Shown one piece after another: positions 5,481 to 54,880 of a stretch of 64,000 nt of DNA. This DNA comes from Corallococcus sp. AB011P (GTDB lineage Bacteria > Myxococcota > Myxococcia > Myxococcales > Myxococcaceae), in contig NZ_RAVX01000011.1 of NCBI RefSeq assembly GCF_003611605.1, positions 132,811 to 196,810 of the forward strand. Direction: 5' to 3'. Numbering within the stretch: position 1 is the first letter of the stretch; each line of letters opens with the position of its first letter. The translations under genes and the position numbers were made by a program. The notes beneath the pieces were generated by a model that worked only from the letters and a program-made list of their open reading frames with translations, made no database searches and was not told the origin of the DNA.

Positions 5481-5816
5481 ATGGTCACCATCGGCATGAA
5501 CTACGAAGTGCGTGAAGGCAAGGCGGAAGCCTTCGAGCGGAAGTTCGCGCTCGTGCTGGAGGCGATGCGCAAGCTGCCGACGCACGTGCACACGGAGCTG
5601 TTCAAGAGCGTGGGGGCGCCGGAGCGCTACCTCATCGTCTCCGAGTGGCACAGCCGCGAGGGCTTCGACGCCTTCGTCGCGTCCGAGGCCTTCCACCGCG
5701 TGACGGACTGGGGCGCCAGCGCCATCCTCGCGAGCCGGCCGCGCCACGAGGTGTATGGCGAGAGGGCCGCCAGCGCCCCCGCGGGCCGCTGCCCGGTCGC
5801 GCACGCGGTGCGGTGA
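5481..5816 (+). CDS. Antibiotic-biosynthesis-monooxygenase (ABM/Dabb) domain protein
   Basis: About 100-aa ferredoxin-like ABM pattern (YLIVSEWHSREGFDAFVASEAF). Compact, co-directional with the che genes. Confidence 0.6.
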   Translation: MVTIGMNYEVREGKAEAFERKFALVLEAMRKLPTHVHTELFKSVGAPERYLIVSEWHSREGFDAFVASEAFHRVTDWGASAILASRPRHEVYGERAASAPAGRCPVAHAVR

Positions 5817-5827
5817 AGCGGGTGCGA

Positions 5828-6892
5828 ATGAACGCCATCCGGGTCCTGGTGGTGGACGACGCGGCCGTGGTGCGGCGCCAGGTGTCGCTGCTGCTGGGCG
5901 CGGCCCCGGGCCTGGAGGTCGTCGCCACCGCGCCCAATGGCCGCATCGCCCTGGCGAAGGTGGAGCAGTTCCAGCCGGACGTCGTGCTGTTGGACCTGGA
6001 GATGCCGGAGCTGGACGGGCTGGAGACGCTGAAGCTCCTGCGCCAGCGCGCTCCAGAGTTGCCCGTGGTGATGTTCAGCGCGCTCACCGAACGCGCGGGC
6101 GTGTTGACCCTGGAGGCGCTCGCGCTGGGGGCCCGCGACTACGTGACGAAGCCCACGTCCGCGGGCGGGATGAACATCACCGTGGAGGCCGTGCGGGATG
6201 AGCTGGTGCGCAAGCTCAAGGCGCTGAACGTGCGCACGCCGTCCGCCGCGCCCTCGCCGTCACCGGTGACGCGCGAGCCCGTGTCCCGGCCTCGAATGCC
6301 CGCGCGGGTGGAGGCCATCGTCGTCGGCGCGTCCACCGGAGGCCCGGGCGCGCTGGTGCGCCTGGTGTCCGCGCTGCCCGCGGACCTGCCGGTGCCGGTG
6401 TTCATCGTGCAACACATGCCGCCCCTCTTCACCCGGCTGCTCGCGGAGCGGTTGCAGGGGGTGACGCCGCTCACCGTGCGCGAGGCGGTGACGGGCGCCA
6501 CCGTGCAGGCGGGCGCGGTGTGGGTCGCCCCCGGCGACTTCCACCTGGCCGTGTGCCGGGATGCGACGGGCGTGCGGCTGCTCACGCACCAGGGGCCGGC
6601 GGAGAACGCGTGCCGTCCGGCGGTGGACCTGCTCTTCCGCTCCGCGGCGGAGGTGTACGGCGCGGGGGTCCTGGCGGTGGTGCTCACCGGCATGGGCCAG
6701 GACGGGCTGCGCGGCTGCCGGCGGGTGAACGAGGCAGGTGGTCAGGTGGTGGTGCAGGACCAGGCCAGCTGCGTCGCCGGCAGCATGCCGGGCGCGGTGG
6801 AACAGGCGGGGCTCGCGGATGCCGTGATGCCCCTGGAGGCGCTGGCCCCGGAGCTGGCGCGGCGCGTGGACGCGCGCGGACGGAGGACCTGA
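5828..6892 (+). CDS. cheB: Chemotaxis response regulator protein-glutamate methylesterase CheB
   Basis: N-terminal receiver (VLVVDDAAVVR...DVVLLDLEMPELDG) and C-terminal CheB methylesterase (GASTGGPGAL...FIVQHMPP...GMGQDGL). An alternative GTG start is at 5822. Confidence 0.85.
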   Translation: MNAIRVLVVDDAAVVRRQVSLLLGAAPGLEVVATAPNGRIALAKVEQFQPDVVLLDLEMPELDGLETLKLLRQRAPELPVVMFSALTERAGVLTLEALALGARDYVTKPTSAGGMNITVEAVRDELVRKLKALNVRTPSAAPSPSPVTREPVSRPRMPARVEAIVVGASTGGPGALVRLVSALPADLPVPVFIVQHMPPLFTRLLAERLQGVTPLTVREAVTGATVQAGAVWVAPGDFHLAVCRDATGVRLLTHQGPAENACRPAVDLLFRSAAEVYGAGVLAVVLTGMGQDGLRGCRRVNEAGGQVVVQDQASCVAGSMPGAVEQAGLADAVMPLEALAPELARRVDARGRRT

Positions 6893-6894
6893 AC

Positions 6895-7785
6895 ATGTCC
6901 CTGCTTCCCGACGACTTCGCGTACCTGCGGCAGCGCGTGCTGCGCCGCTCCGGGCTCGTGCTGGAGTCAGACACGCACGCGCTGGTGGAGACGCGGCTCA
7001 CGCCCCTCATGCGCGAGGAGCGGCTGCCGGACCTCTCCGCCCTGGTCTCCCGGTTGCGCTCGCAGCCGGAGGGCAGTCCGCTCCACCAGCGCCTGGCGGA
7101 AGCGCTGGCCAACCACGAGACGGCCTTCTTCCGCGACGCGAGCGTCTTCGAGGCCCTGCGCACCACGGTGCTCCCCACCCTGCTGGCGAAGCGCGTCCGC
7201 ACGCGGACCCTGCGCATCTGGTGCGCGGCGTGCGCCTACGGCCAGGAGCCCTACAGCGTCGCGATGACGCTGGCCGAGGCCGGGCTGCTCATCACCGGAT
7301 GGACGGTGTGCATCCTCGCCACCGACTTCTCCACCCGCGCGATCCTCCGTGCCTGCGAGGCCCGCTACGACGTGAAGGAGATCCACCGCGGCCTGACGCC
7401 CGAGCTGCGCCAGCGCTACTTCCACCAGGAGCGCGACGGGTGGCGGCTGAGCGAACAGGTGCGCAAGCCAGTGGAGTTCCGGCAGCTCAACCTGCTGGAA
7501 GACTTCCCGCTGGAAGCGCCCGTGGATCTCGTCTTCCTGCGCAACGTGATGATCTACTGGGACGTGCCCACCCGGCGCGCGGTGCTCGCCCGCGTGCGGC
7601 GGATGCTCCACGCGGACGGCTACCTGGTGCTGGGCGCCGCGGAGGCCTCGCCCTTGGTGGAGGACGGCTTCACGCGGCACCTGGTTGGACAGACGAGCTG
7701 GTACCGCCCCACACCCGCCTCGCCCGGCGTCGGCGCGCCCGTGGAGGACGCGCGGCGCTCGCCCCGCTCCGGCGCTACACCTTGA
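6895..7785 (+). CDS. cheR: Chemotaxis protein methyltransferase CheR
   Basis: CheR N-terminal and SAM-dependent methyltransferase domains (ETAFFRD..., RIWCAACAYGQEPYSVAM, LVFLRNVMIYWD). The start lies 3 nt after the cheB stop. Confidence 0.85.
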   Translation: MSLLPDDFAYLRQRVLRRSGLVLESDTHALVETRLTPLMREERLPDLSALVSRLRSQPEGSPLHQRLAEALANHETAFFRDASVFEALRTTVLPTLLAKRVRTRTLRIWCAACAYGQEPYSVAMTLAEAGLLITGWTVCILATDFSTRAILRACEARYDVKEIHRGLTPELRQRYFHQERDGWRLSEQVRKPVEFRQLNLLEDFPLEAPVDLVFLRNVMIYWDVPTRRAVLARVRRMLHADGYLVLGAAEASPLVEDGFTRHLVGQTSWYRPTPASPGVGAPVEDARRSPRSGATP

Positions 7786-8695
7786 GGCGGATGGCGCCCG
7801 GCAACAGCGTCATGGTGCAGGGCAGCCGGCCCGGCGTCTCGCCGTCCACGTCCAGGAACACGTCGCCCGTCAGCGGCTCCGCGTGGAGCGTGCGGCAGCG
7901 CAGCCGCCGCGTGCCCTTCCAGGTGACGTGGTCGCCGTTGTAGACGCCCTTGGACTTGAGGACGAAGTCGGACAGGCCGTAGTTGGACCAGATGGTGACG
8001 TCGAAGAGGCCGTCGTGCGTCACCGCGTCAGGCGCCACGAACATGCCGCTGCCGAAGTAGCGGCCATTGGCCACGGCCACCGCGGTGACGCTCACCGTCT
8101 CCGGCTCGCCGCCGTCCACCGTGAGGCGCACCTGCTGCTCCTGGTACTTGATGAGGCCCTTCACCGTGCCCCACATGAAGCTCAGGTTGCCGCCCAGCGC
8201 CTTGCTGCCCTGATTCACCTCGCGGGCCACCACCGCGCTCACGCCGAACGAGGCGATGTTGGAGAAGAAGCGCGTGGCCGGCTTGCCGTCGTTGTCGGTG
8301 AACTCCAGCCGCCCCACGTCGAAGGGCTCGGTGGTTTCCGTGCGCAGCCGCTCCAGCGCGGACGTCAGCTCCAGGTCCCACCCGAAGGTGCGGCGGAAGT
8401 CGCCGCCGGTGCCTCGGGGCAACAGGCCCAGCGTGGCCCGGGGGTTGATGACCTGTCCGTCGCGGAAGAAGCCGTTGGTGACCTCGTTGAGGGTGCCGTC
8501 GCCGCCCACCGCGACGATGCACTCGTAGCCATCGTCGATGGCCTGCCGCGCCAGACGCGCCGCATCCATGCCGCCGCTGGTGAAGCCGTACCCGAAGTCA
8601 CCGAGCACCTTGCCCACCTGCGCGGAGATCTCCACCCATCGCTTCCCCGTCTGCCCGTTGGCGCTGCGCGGGTTGACCACGAGGAACGTCTTCAT
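7775..8695 (-). CDS. Lipid kinase of the DAGK_cat / YegS-BmrU family
   Basis: DAGK catalytic domain with VAVGGDGTLNEV and GLLPRGTGGDF motifs. Convergent with cheR, overlapping by about 10 nt. Confidence 0.75.
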   Translation of the reverse strand: MKTFLVVNPRSANGQTGKRWVEISAQVGKVLGDFGYGFTSGGMDAARLARQAIDDGYECIVAVGGDGTLNEVTNGFFRDGQVINPRATLGLLPRGTGGDFRRTFGWDLELTSALERLRTETTEPFDVGRLEFTDNDGKPATRFFSNIASFGVSAVVAREVNQGSKALGGNLSFMWGTVKGLIKYQEQQVRLTVDGGEPETVSVTAVAVANGRYFGSGMFVAPDAVTHDGLFDVTIWSNYGLSDFVLKSKGVYNGDHVTWKGTRRLRCRTLHAEPLTGDVFLDVDGETPGRLPCTMTLLPGAIRLKV

Positions 8696-8812: not shown

Positions 8813-9532
8813 ATGCTGGGCTCTCCGCCCCCTGTTTTCGTCCCGGTCCCCCGAGTGAAAGCCCCATCCCCCACCGAGCAGCTCGCGCCCCACCGGGAGG
8901 CCACGCGCGCCCTGGACTGGGCGCTGCCCGCGCTCCGGGCGGACCTGGCGGCGGCGGCGCGGCAGCCCTTCCGGGAGACAGGGGCCCAGGAGGACTTCCT
9001 GCACCGCCATGACGCACCGGCCCATGAAGCCCAGGGACCGGCGCGGACGGAGCGCTTCGAGCGGGCCCTGGCCCGGGTGCGGCGGCTCGCGGACGCGGGC
9101 CAGCCGCTGACCTTCTCCCGGATGGTGGAGGTCCAGTCGGAGCTCCTGGGCGGGCCCACGGGCTTTCGCACCGGGGACGCCTTCGCGAGGGGTGGCGCGC
9201 ACCGCTATGCGCACGCGCCCGGCCTGGAGGCGGCCTTCCGCGACAAGGTGGAGACGGACGCGCGGGAAGAGCGTCACCCGGTGGTACATGCCACGCGGTT
9301 GTACCTGGACCTGTGTTTCTTCCACCCCTTCCCGGACGGCAACGCGCGCGCGGCGCGGCTGTGGCTGGAATACATGCTGCGCCGGGGCCGGCTGCCCACG
9401 CCACCGCTGGCGCCCGTGGTGCTGTGGCCCAAGCGCCCGGGCGACGCGGTGAACTACACGCGGCTGGCGAGGCTGCTGGCCCGGACCATCGCGGGGCCGG
9501 ACGCCCCGTGCCGCAACGAGGTGCCTGAATGA
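8813..9532 (+). CDS. Fic/Doc-family (Fido) domain protein with a variant active-site motif
   Basis: HPFPDGNARAARLW matches the Fic core HxFx(D/E)GNGRxxR with G-to-A in the third-last position. Start uncertain (first ATG of the ORF). Confidence 0.55.
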   Translation: MLGSPPPVFVPVPRVKAPSPTEQLAPHREATRALDWALPALRADLAAAARQPFRETGAQEDFLHRHDAPAHEAQGPARTERFERALARVRRLADAGQPLTFSRMVEVQSELLGGPTGFRTGDAFARGGAHRYAHAPGLEAAFRDKVETDAREERHPVVHATRLYLDLCFFHPFPDGNARAARLWLEYMLRRGRLPTPPLAPVVLWPKRPGDAVNYTRLARLLARTIAGPDAPCRNEVPE

Positions 9533-10194
9533 GCAGTGACGCATCGGCTTTCACGTGGCGCCGCATCCGCGACAGCCTGGATGCCTACTCACCGCAATCG
9601 CTGGCGTCCCGGCTGAGGGAGGCCCTGGCCCCCCTGCGGACCGGAAGCATTCACACAAGCCGACTCAAGCAGGCGAAGAACGCCGTGCAGGACCTGCTCC
9701 AGGCCGAGCTGGGTCCCTGGTACATCGAGAGCGGCCTGCCCCTGGGCAATGAGGTGCTGGGGGGCTATTGCTGGTGCCACTCGTTCTTCAACCAGAACCC
9801 GCCGCATCGGACCTTGGATGTGGATGAGAACATCCAGCTCATGCTGGAGGCGCTGGAGCGGATCCGTTCGTTCCTGTACGCGCTGGACGGCGTGTATCAG
9901 GCCTCGCGCCGTCAGCTCGAGTTGGCGGCCGACGACAAGGCTCTCCGGGCGAAGGCGCTCGCGGAAGGGCTGGTGCGGACCGTGGACCTGACGGCGGAGA
10001 CGACGTCCTGCGAGGAGACCTGGTACCAGGTCGCGCAGGACGCCATGACGTGGTGCATCGAGGCAATGGAGCTGCCCTTGTCGGAGGCCACGCAGGAGCA
10101 GTTGGACACGGCCTTCGTCTTCACATCCTGGATTGCGCCTCCCCCGGAGGCTCTCCGTGAGGCGGCGGCGCGGGTGGCGGAGGTGGCCGTATGA
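9529..10194 (+). CDS. Hypothetical protein, paralogue A of a tandem pair (conserved GGYCWCH motif)
   Basis: ATG overlaps the Fic-like stop (ATGA). About 45% identity to the next gene. Conserved blocks: IRDSLD.Y, LGPWY.E.GL.LGNE..GGYCWCH.FF, NIQL...ALER. GC lower than surroundings. Confidence 0.6.
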   Translation: MSSDASAFTWRRIRDSLDAYSPQSLASRLREALAPLRTGSIHTSRLKQAKNAVQDLLQAELGPWYIESGLPLGNEVLGGYCWCHSFFNQNPPHRTLDVDENIQLMLEALERIRSFLYALDGVYQASRRQLELAADDKALRAKALAEGLVRTVDLTAETTSCEETWYQVAQDAMTWCIEAMELPLSEATQEQLDTAFVFTSWIAPPPEALREAAARVAEVAV

Positions 10195-10886
10195 GCAGGT
10201 CGGCCCTGGGGCACTGGCTGCTCATCCGCGACAGCCTGGATGGCTATGACCCGGAGAAGCTCATCCGGATGCTGCGAGAGTACCTGACGCCGCGCGTGCC
10301 CCCAGGGACGCGCAAGCTCACGGACGAGCAGCACGACACGATGGCGAAACACATCCAGCGGATGCTCAACCAGAACCTGGGGCCCTGGTACACGGAGACG
10401 GGGCTGTATCTGGGCAATGAGAGCTTCGGGGGCTACTGCTGGTGCCACCGTTTCTTCAGACAGAAGCCCACCCCGAACATGGGCGTGGAATACAACATCC
10501 AGCTCATCATCGACGCGCTGGAGCGGTCGCGCGAATGGCTGTTCAAGCTGGATGCCCACTTCCAGGCGCTGAAGCGGAACCTGCCCTCGGGCCCCGACGA
10601 CAATGACATCCGGACGCTGGCCCTGTCGGATGGAATCGTCACCACGATGAACCTCACCATGGACGCCACGGGCTGCGAGGAGTCCTGGTACACCTTCGCG
10701 GACGAGGCGCTGGCCTGGATGTTCGACGCCATCGAGCTGCGTCCGGGGTATCAGGCCGGAAAGCTGATGCGGAAGCTGTTCGCCTTCGAGTCCTGGCACT
10801 CGCCGCCCGAGGAGGAGCTGCGCGGCTCAGCGGAGCAGGTGGCGGCGGCCGTCGTGGAGGACGAGGGCCGCCGGCACACGCACTGA
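10191..10886 (+). CDS. Hypothetical protein, paralogue B of the tandem pair
   Basis: ATGA overlap with paralogue A. Same conserved motifs, including GGYCWCH and C.EE.WY. Confidence 0.6.
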   Translation: MSRSALGHWLLIRDSLDGYDPEKLIRMLREYLTPRVPPGTRKLTDEQHDTMAKHIQRMLNQNLGPWYTETGLYLGNESFGGYCWCHRFFRQKPTPNMGVEYNIQLIIDALERSREWLFKLDAHFQALKRNLPSGPDDNDIRTLALSDGIVTTMNLTMDATGCEESWYTFADEALAWMFDAIELRPGYQAGKLMRKLFAFESWHSPPEEELRGSAEQVAAAVVEDEGRRHTH

Positions 10887-13532: not shown

Positions 13533-13942
13533 GTGGGTGGCAAGCAGCGCGTTGACGAATCCAGCGCGGGAGCAAGGCTCGGGAGGACGCATCTTCTCCA
13601 GCGTCAACGACTCATCCACGGTGACCGCGCGCGTATTGCGCCTGGGGGGCTGCACCATCAAGCCCCGCGCCGCCAGCCACCGCAGCGCCTCGCGCGCTGT
13701 GGCCCGGCATGCTCCATAGAGACGCGCCAGCTTCGCTTCCGAGCCGAACTGCGCGCGGGCCGGCAGTCCCCCCAGCGACAACCCACGCTCGAACTGCTCC
13801 CCCACAAACGCCACGAGCCCCACCATCACCATCCCCTCCTCGTCCCAGCGTCGCCATCCAACCACAGGGGTCTGACATGGGCGCGAGGCACACCCTTCGC
13901 GTCGCCCGCCGGGCCAGTGCGGCCCCGGGCCGCATGCGTCGA

Positions 13943-13969
13943 AAACCTGTCCGACTGTCGGACAGGTTT
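13943..13969. repeat. 27-bp perfect palindrome AAACCTGTCCGACTGTCGGACAGGTTT (copy 1)
   Basis: Seen directly. The same 27-mer recurs at 14086, 54587, 54697 and 54807. Followed by the conserved GGAGGGAACCGGGCCCGGGCGGG. Confidence 0.9.
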
Positions 13970-14085
13970 GGAGGGAACCGGGCCCGGGCGGGTGCCCCTG
14001 TCCGAGCCCTCACCTGGTGGAGTTCGCGCACGCATGACGATGCGGATCCGAAGGGCCGCCGCGCCCCCAGGCCTCGTGTGGCGGA

Positions 14086-14112
14086 AACCTGTCCGACTGT
14101 CGGACAGGTTTG
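14086..14112. repeat. 27-bp perfect palindrome (copy 2), with the same 3' flank as copy 1
   Basis: Seen directly, 143 bp downstream of copy 1, in the 755-bp non-coding gap upstream of proC. Confidence 0.9.
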
Positions 14113-14287
14113 GAGGGAACCGGGCCCGGGCGGGCGCATCGGTTCGTGGGTCCGCATTTCCGTCCGCTCCCGCATCCCGTCGAGCTCCATTGCTGCGCCC
14201 AGCCAAGGCGCGCGCCGTCGCGGAGAACACCGGGTCACGGCCTCTGTTGAGAACTCCGGGCTGCCCACTTGAGGTTAGGCTTCAGCG

Positions 14288-54549: not shown

Positions 54550-54880
54550 TTCAGGCTGGCAGCCACCTCCGGGGACGAAGCTCCTCAAACCTGTCCGACT
54601 GTCGGACAGGTTTCCCGAGGCCGCAACCGGCAGGGCCCCCTCACCCCAAGTCGAGGAGTTTCAGGCTGGCAGCCACCTCCGGGGACGAAGCTCCTCAAAC
54701 CTGTCCGACTGTCGGACAGGTTTCCCGAGGCCGCAACCGGCAGGGCCCCCTCACCCCAAGTCGAGGAGTTTCAGGCTGGCAGCCACCTCCGGGGACGAAG
54801 CTCCTCAAACCTGTCCGACTGTCGGACAGGTTTCCCGCGGCCGCAGCCGGCAGGGCCCCCTCCCCCTCGGTGCCACCGAC
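54550..54880. repeat. Three tandem copies of a 110-bp unit, each containing the 27-bp palindrome AAACCTGTCCGACTGTCGGACAGGTTT (at 54587, 54697, 54807)
   Basis: Seen directly. Unit: TTCAGGCTGGCAGCCACCTCCGGGGACGAAGCTCCTCAAACCTGTCCGACTGTCGGACAGGTTTCCCGAGGCCGCAACCGGCAGGGCCCCCTCACCCCAAGTCGAGGAGT. Copies 1 and 2 are identical; copy 3 carries a few substitutions. Confidence 0.9.

Follow-up and report, generated by a model that had tools for sequence, protein, structure and literature searches.

The locus considered here raises the question of what two adjacent, paralogous proteins of no recognised family are doing immediately behind a gene for a Fic protein whose active-site motif departs from the canonical form. 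It lies in a 64,000-nucleotide (nt) stretch of contig NZ_RAVX01000011.1 of Corallococcus sp. AB011P (the window, to which all coordinates refer unless another locus is named), and consists of three open reading frames (ORFs) on the + strand, at 8813-9532, 9529-10194 and 10191-10886, which encode proteins of 239, 221 and 231 amino acids (aa). An earlier sequence-only reading of the window had described them as a cassette in which each stop overlaps the next start, and both junctions are indeed ATGA overlaps on the + strand. The tie between the three genes proves stronger than that reading had claimed. The second and third ORFs belong to an uncurated, all-alpha family of about 220 aa, and members of this family are almost always encoded next to, or fused to, a Fic protein that carries GNAR in place of GNGR, across distant bacteria, which suggests that the partner domain may control the enzyme. 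What is new here is the wider partner family, the fusions, the adjacency in distant lineages and the specificity for Fic proteins of the GNAR subfamily. The features of the cassette are as follows.

8813..9532, + strand: Fic-family gene of the GNAR subfamily (ORF1), identified by its PF02661 match; its orthologues are named "Fic family protein"
9161..9208, + strand: segment GFRTGDAFARGGAHRY, upstream of the Fic motif, with subfamily alignment consensus FRTxDAFAKxGRERYG; from general knowledge of the Fic fold, we take it to be flap-like
9323..9358, + strand: Fic active-site motif HPFPDGNARAAR, residues 171-182, in which the second Gly of GNGR is replaced by Ala
9529..9532, + strand: ATGA stop/start overlap between the Fic gene and copy A, with GAGG 9-12 nt upstream
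9529..10194, + strand: partner-domain gene copy A (ORF2), 221 aa, encoding the "CW domain", identified by its ORF, homologues and AF2 model
9760..9789, + strand: GGYCWCHSFF in copy A, with the cluster of Cys81, a second Cys, His84 and Ser85, from family conservation counts
10003..10026, + strand: TSCEETWY in copy A, with T159, D/E163, W165 and Y166, located where helix 137-159 meets helix 162-179, from conservation and the AF2 model
10120..10143, + strand: FTSWIAPP in copy A, with F198, S200, W201 and P204 found family-wide, from conservation counts
10191..10194, + strand: ATGA stop/start overlap between copies A and B, with GGAGG 10-14 nt upstream
10191..10886, + strand: partner-domain gene copy B (ORF3), 231 aa, identified by homology to copy A and by its substitution rates
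10428..10457, + strand: GGYCWCHRFF in copy B, seen in the sequence

Shine-Dalgarno-like GAGG or GGAGG sequences precede both downstream ATGs within the preceding gene and, together with the ATGA overlaps, they make translational coupling plausible. The three genes form a co-transcribed and probably co-translated module, and the cassette genes are tightly abutted in orthologous loci too. The Fic orthologues are 225 aa long in the NCBI annotation, which fits an in-frame GTG at 8855 as the start instead of the ATG at 8813. No Rfam match was found between positions 8000 and 15000 of the window, and the search for a promoter or terminator yielded no convincing candidate.

The association of the partner domain with the Fic protein can be assessed through gene fusions and gene neighbourhoods. 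An exhaustive profile search newly listed 148 proteins, of which 25 are at least 370 aa long. Of these 25, 21 are fusions in which an N-terminal partner domain is joined to a C-terminal Fic domain, so that the family contains no fewer than 21 such representatives. The Fic part of these 21 proteins is 33-49% identical to ORF1, and its motif is GNAR in 18 of them, GNGR in two and GNSR in one; two further fusions, P0067 and P0064, were found among the Fic homologues of ORF1. A GNAR-Fic gene also abuts or overlaps seven of the eight distant unfused partner members that were examined, in both gene orders and on contigs of 42-76% GC.

L017, contig of 48% GC: Fic then partner
L023, Hyalangium: Fic then partner
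L025, contig of 55% GC: Fic then partner
L018, contig of 42.5% GC: partner then Fic
L024, Actinoplanes: partner then Fic
Contig of P0084, metagenome: partner then Fic
L028, contig of 76% GC: partner then Fic

As a control, 104 canonical GNGR-Fic loci (61 metagenomic, 43 viral) were taken from Fic-motif contig scans, and none of them has a partner-family ORF within 4 kb of the Fic gene. The fusions, the adjacency and the control set thus indicate that the partner domain and the GNAR-Fic protein constitute a specific module, which may be fused or split. The evidence for this linkage is strong; it does not in itself demonstrate an unusual mechanism. Negligible probability is attached to the view that the adjacency is coincidental or that the paralogues are not real genes. 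The absence of annotation is all that speaks for it, and it is countered by the 214 representatives of the family, the fusions, the conserved adjacency, a confident structure model and the ratio of nonsynonymous to synonymous substitution rates (dN/dS). The latter is 0.18-0.35 overall for the partner genes against their orthologues (0.24-0.31 for copy A, 0.18-0.35 for copy B) and 0.19 for the Fic gene against that of C. exercitus: the Fic gene and both partner copies are under purifying selection. The outcome that the sequence-only reading had named as telling against its cassette, namely a family with an unrelated housekeeping role that mostly occurs without Fic neighbours, was not encountered either, as the paralogues match no characterised family and a Fic gene is missing from only one of the eight distant unfused contexts.

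The nature of the Fic protein bears directly on what a partner might do to it. ORF1 matches the Pfam family PF02661 over residues 100-189 with 37.9 bits (gathering score 24, E 3.4e-9), the catalytic set of H171, D175, N177, R179 and R182 is complete in HPFPDGNARAAR, and the protein falls within the Fic fold when membership of that fold is tested. Its sequence likeness to class II Fic proteins of known structure is limited to the core (E about 1e-4). The strict GNGR anion-hole sequence is replaced in ORF1 by GNAR, a Gly-to-Ala change that had been correctly pointed out from the sequence, with the suggestion that it may alter or abolish the AMPylation chemistry. As a sign of lost chemistry, the change finds no support. 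HPFxDGNARAAR is the motif in 44 of the 45 ORF1 homologues and is therefore a hallmark of the subfamily rather than a sign of decay, and a few fusions have Gly or Ser instead of Ala. With the variant being subfamily-wide and the His, Asp, Asn and both Arg residues intact, degeneration was rejected as an explanation; GNAR looks like a conservative change in the anion-hole loop that selection has kept, and not like a dead site. Because it is shared across the subfamily, it gives no grounds for excluding ORF1 from the Fic superfamily, of which ORF1 is, by its profile match and motif, a member belonging to a distinct GNAR subfamily. Its predicted activity is that of a Fic-type nucleotidyl transferase, with AMP probably being the transferred group. 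GNAR is not among the five Fic motif groups defined by Khater & Mohanty 2015 (PMC4454073). ORF1 does not conform to the Doc motif, having Ala and not Lys at the position of the second Gly, and GNAR-Fic proteins have no accessory domain besides the Fic core. The inhibitory motif [S/T]xxxE[G/N] is absent from ORF1 and is matched in only one of the 45 members of the Fic subfamily.

The two partner copies are 43% identical over 215 aa (BLASTP, E 4e-63), so that their description as paralogues is upheld at an identity slightly below the approximately 45% first proposed. Of the invariant blocks listed at that time, IRDSLD.Y, LGPWY, GGYCWCH.FF and NIQL...ALER are common to both copies as written, and the last one needs to be amended from C.EE.WY to CEE.WY (SCEETWY in copy A, GCEESWY in copy B). 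The failure to recognise a family was likewise borne out, since neither ORF2 nor ORF3 matches anything in Pfam, NCBIfam, PADLOC or PHROGs. Across 56 partner members, no recurrent Pfam family is seen, and one match, in a single member and with an E of 0.0054 that lies below the cut-off, was set aside as generic helical-bundle similarity. The exhaustive profile search delineates a family of 214 cluster representatives at E <= 1e-3, or 69 at E <= 1e-10; a word-indexed protein search had identified only 24 close relatives, and a search of this kind with a broad partner alignment also returned almost only close relatives. Over 116 aligned members (in ORF2 numbering), the conserved residues are W10, G62, W64, C81 (108 members), a second Cys at position 82 or 83, H84 (102), S85 (87), T159, D/E163, A/S164, W165, Y166, W175, F198 (106), S200 (109), W201 (107) and P204 (110), and the signature of the family can be written as GxW, (Y/W)C-[WC]-[Cx]-HS, TxxxD/E-A/S-WY and FxSWxxP. 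Both window copies retain every family-wide residue. The Cys/His motif is YCWCHS in proteins of the Corallococcus type; the majority type has WCCxxHS, following a Gly-rich loop. C161 is conserved in only about half of the members. The AF2 model of copy A (pLDDT 85, pTM 0.84) is all helical and places the conserved residues at helix ends and in loops. No solved relative of the partner was found with Foldseek, for which the best match has an E of 0.6, and a profile search of PDB sequences with the partner returned designed proteins only, at E >= 0.025.

To our knowledge, Fic regulation is currently divided into three classes, all of which rest on one inhibitory glutamate helix. The inhibitor is supplied in trans in class I Fic proteins and in cis in classes II and III, and the occurrence of the partner domain as a separate or fused entity parallels this distinction. 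The pairs of class I (VbhT/VbhA, EcFicT/EcFicA, Fic-1/AntF) likewise consist of a Fic gene and a tightly coupled cognate partner gene. The class I partner is described as binding the active-site face and either inhibiting AMPylation or making the complex a deAMPylase (PMC13327609), and a partner or an inhibitory Glu as being able to switch a Fic protein between AMPylation and deAMPylation (PMC13327609; PMC6826200). Whereas the class I antitoxin is small and carries [S/T]xxxE[G/N], the partners in the window have 221-231 aa and lack the motif, which is absent from both ORF2 and ORF3 and appears in 16 of 172 partner-family sequences at scattered, non-homologous positions. Class II proteins (SoFic, 3ZCN; BT_2513, 3CUC; FICD, 4U04; M. 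marinum Fic, 7CB8) have an inhibitory helix in cis, in contrast to ORF1 with its lack of an inhibitory Glu motif, and their accessory wHTH or TPR domains have no counterpart here; the N-terminal domain of the fusions is without a PDB match. Since the inhibitory motif is missing, the module is filed under neither class I nor class II, although these are the classes that it resembles most in arrangement. The Fic half of the modelled fusion P0067 is nearest to class II proteins, with 7cb8, 3zcn, 3cuc and 4u04 ranking first, a likeness that concerns the fold only, and the N-terminal half of this protein has no structural match in the PDB. A last comparison concerns the active-site loop. Doc, with HxFx(D/N)(A/G)NKR, is a kinase, and AnkX, with HxFxDANGRxxV, is a phosphocholine transferase, and both set a precedent for a change in the anion-hole loop accompanying a different substrate or transferred group. 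In the present motif only the second Gly is replaced, by Ala; the acidic residue, the Asn and the two Arg are unchanged, and Gly recurs in some of the fusions.

The favoured reading, quite possible but tentative, is that the partner binds and gates a Fic protein in which the usual inhibitory [S/T]xxxE[G/N] motif is lacking. We infer that it would do so as a stoichiometric subunit, which elsewhere is the N-terminal domain of the same polypeptide. Once bound, the partner would gate the active site, either holding the enzyme off or switching its direction, and would thus take the role that the [S/T]xxxE[G/N] helix plays in the Fic proteins of classes I to III and for which the motif is absent here. 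Metal binding or redox sensing by the Cys-Cys-His cluster may release or alter the control, and the two copies produced by tandem duplication in Corallococcus would probably enter alternative or mixed complexes. The candidate metal ligands are C81, C83, H84 and C161, with D/E163; C161 and the cluster are not universal, and metal or redox sensing by the cluster is speculation. The more far-reaching proposal that the module represents a fourth mode of Fic control is doubtful: here a large Cys/His sensor domain, in trans or in cis, would replace the inhibitory-glutamate helix and couple AMPylation or deAMPylation, or some other chemistry permitted by GNAR, to a redox or metal signal.

The gating of the Fic protein by its partner has to be weighed against the possibility that the partner is a target-recognition subunit, or else a substrate modified on T159, Y166, S85 or S200. 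Such a role would explain the fusions and the strict adjacency equally well, and would suit GNAR-Fic proteins that are without any other accessory domain; moreover, the partner has highly conserved Ser, Thr and Tyr residues, and it is the hydroxyls of such residues that Fic enzymes modify, often on themselves. It nevertheless appears unlikely, as T159 is replaced by Leu, Gln, Val or Tyr across one whole partner clade, a substrate fused one-to-one in cis would be unusual and nothing points to an external target.

Several other members of the family depart from the common organisation. In the pair of Actinoplanes sp. NPDC049118 (L024:4268-5657), the Fic motif ends in Leu (HPFPDGNARAAL) and the partner has WCCPRDS, in which His is replaced by Asp, and ESGWY; this pair may be decaying or repurposed. 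Only about 170 nt after a partner-like ORF at L064:1052-1689 (Ga0302317_10002674) comes a segment of 20 aa with 85% identity to the region around the Fic motif in P0067; this may be a truncated or rearranged fusion. A shared third component of the module was also sought among neighbouring ORFs of 205 aa (L016), 298 aa (L018) and 296 aa (L019), and was dismissed, given that these have no mutual similarity and no match to the partner hidden Markov model (HMM).

A number of findings weigh against control of the Fic protein by the partner in the form proposed above. The partner gene at L027:4001-4732 (NCBI GCA_039528135.1) is an orphan, with no Fic gene within 4 kb; its neighbours are AhpC/redoxin and thioredoxin genes, the one indication that the Cys motif might operate in a redox setting. 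Five proteins of about 500 aa (P0109, P0111, P0119, P0128 and P0221; loci L020-L022 and L026) combine the partner domain with a different, conserved C-terminal domain of about 290 aa that has no Pfam match, and neither of the two among the five whose surroundings were examined showed a Fic neighbour. The idea that this C-terminal domain is a decayed Fic was abandoned, as hhalign assigns it a probability of about 1% and no relation could be shown. The orphan and the proteins of about 500 aa therefore imply that the partner domain can work without Fic, and they favour a general binding or sensor role over that of a Fic-only inhibitor. T159xxxD/E163, where helix 162-179 begins, is similar to the inhibitory motif in form only. 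Furthermore, four unfused members (P0074, P0075, P0092 and P0098) and the fusion P0146 have lost the Cys/His cluster, and in Hyalangium rubrum (L023:5630-6340) VSSY replaces CWCH in the partner next to a Fic protein that retains HPFPDGNARAAR; given its loss where the Fic protein is intact, the cluster is not essential for the core role. A covariation between the loss of D/E163 and that of the last Arg of the Fic motif, which the Actinoplanes pair had suggested, is contradicted by L028, where S163 occurs together with HPFADGNARAGR. Lastly, the model of the fusion P0067 has a pLDDT of 90.4 and a pTM of 0.69, and this pTM says little on how the two domains pack.

The orphan copies and the fusions to a different C-terminal domain would also accommodate a partner that is itself an enzyme, either a Cys/His hydrolase that reverses the Fic modification or a metal-dependent activity working in series with it. 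The conserved residues Cys81, His84, Ser85 and D/E163 occupy helix ends and loops, as residues of active sites often do. We regard an enzymatic partner as distinctly improbable.

The sequence-only reading had further suggested that the cassette could be a toxin/antidote-like or modification module of foreign origin, and had noted that the GC content of the paralogues is lower than that of the flanking genes. Total GC is indeed lower in copy A (66.5%) and copy B (65.2%) than in the window (70.0%). GC at third codon positions (GC3) is nonetheless within the range of the neighbours (0.86-0.96), at 0.90 for the Fic gene, 0.87 for copy A and 0.91 for copy B; the dip is confined to codon positions 1 and 2 and so reflects amino-acid composition. 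ORF2 shares 97% identity with a Corallococcus sp. CA049B protein and 95% with COCOR_04891, its orthologue in C. coralloides DSM 2259. A motif-pattern scan for the Corallococcus-type pattern, applied to one genome per species in 185,579 species, retrieved 15 loci, every one of them in Corallococcus, Pyxidicoccus or a Myxococcaceae metagenome-assembled genome. The arrangement that these loci have in common, established by tblastn with the window genes, is CheR (forward), DAGK (reverse), Fic and one or two partner copies (forward), Hsp20 and PhzF (reverse), and an outer-membrane protein (OMP) and ProC (forward). The landmark upstream of the Fic gene is the following.

7775..8695, - strand: DAGK/YegS-like lipid kinase gene, divergent to the Fic gene; it is a syntenic landmark whose membership in the module is not shown

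The DAGK gene is found upstream of Fic in 13 of the 15 Corallococcus and Pyxidicoccus loci, the other two beginning at a contig end, and is absent from the GNAR-Fic/partner modules of other lineages. In Hyalangium rubrum, DAGK is followed by Fic and then by an overlapping ORF of 236 aa that matches the partner HMM with an E of 1.6e-55. A foreign origin was rejected on the basis of this synteny across three genera (Corallococcus, Pyxidicoccus, Hyalangium) and of the native GC3. Synteny, GC3, dN/dS and the partner tree argue against recent horizontal acquisition, and for a chromosomal, vertically inherited locus.

The same data bear on the explanation of the cassette as a mobile type II toxin-antitoxin (TA) or anti-phage module of foreign origin, with the Fic protein as toxin and the paralogues as antidotes. 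Besides the lower total GC, its supporters could cite the tight coupling of the genes, the usual antitoxin-toxin order of the four distant contexts in which the partner gene comes first, and the weak matches of the Fic core, and of the core only, to the PADLOC models PDC-S24, SoFic and PDC-S04 (E 6.6e-9 to 4e-5). The patchy mobile distribution expected of type II TA systems is not seen, however, as the flanks are the same in the 15 Corallococcus and Pyxidicoccus loci and in Hyalangium, and the cassette has no adjoining integrase or transposase in the window. Compared with FicA or VbhA, the partner is three to four times as large and lacks their motif, and stable cis fusions are common. In contrast to the defence Fic systems of PADLOC, the context is not a defence island and the components required by the models are not all present, there being no match for the partners in either PADLOC or PHROGs; none of the 43 viral Fic loci carries a partner. 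A mobile TA or defence module is a distinctly improbable explanation as well.

The presence of two partner copies appears to be a later development within Corallococcus. In a neighbour-joining tree, copies A and B form sister clades inside Corallococcus, with Pyxidicoccus and then Hyalangium outside, so that the second copy is ascribed to a tandem duplication in the ancestor of Corallococcus. Of the two copies, A is the faster-evolving, with 57% identity against 70-72% for B at equal depth. Copy B is the one kept by single-copy Corallococcus species, and is nearer than copy A to the single Pyxidicoccus gene. Copy A has been lost in C. sicarius, C. praedator, C. llansteffanensis, CA053C and RDP092CA; C. 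terminator, the species nearest to C. praedator in the tree, still has it. The match to copy A ends at residue 140 in C. coralloides KYC2213 (L005), which suggests an internal deletion.

Two further observations concern the surroundings of the cassette. Just upstream of the DAGK gene, the window contains CheB-like and CheR-like chemotaxis genes (5645-7785), which are syntenic in related loci and have no apparent link to the cassette. A perfect 27-nt palindrome, AAACCTGTCCGACTGTCGGACAGGTTT, occurs in five copies in the window, at 13943, 14085, 54587, 54697 and 54807, where none would be expected by chance. Two of the copies lie within direct repeats of about 99 nt (13906-14004 and 14048-14146) in the 756-bp gap between the OMP-like gene and proC, and the others are at 54587-54833. 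C. exercitus has an OMP-like/proC gap of only about 20 bp, and in other species the gap spans 0.9-1.7 kb. The palindrome looks like a dispersed element of the repetitive extragenic palindrome or miniature inverted-repeat transposable element type.

For the Fic superfamily, these results bring forward a GNAR subfamily that is without the inhibitory motif and is tied instead, by adjacency or fusion, to an uncharacterised domain of about 220 aa. Should the partner merely be a structural subunit, the gain would be a modest one in annotation. If the partner is a regulator, it would give a name to a family of more than 200 clusters of "hypothetical" proteins, and would represent a new control logic, possibly responsive to a signal, for a widespread post-translational modification. 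Corallococcus is a cultivable genus, and its diverged copies, together with natural single-copy relatives, allow a direct comparison.

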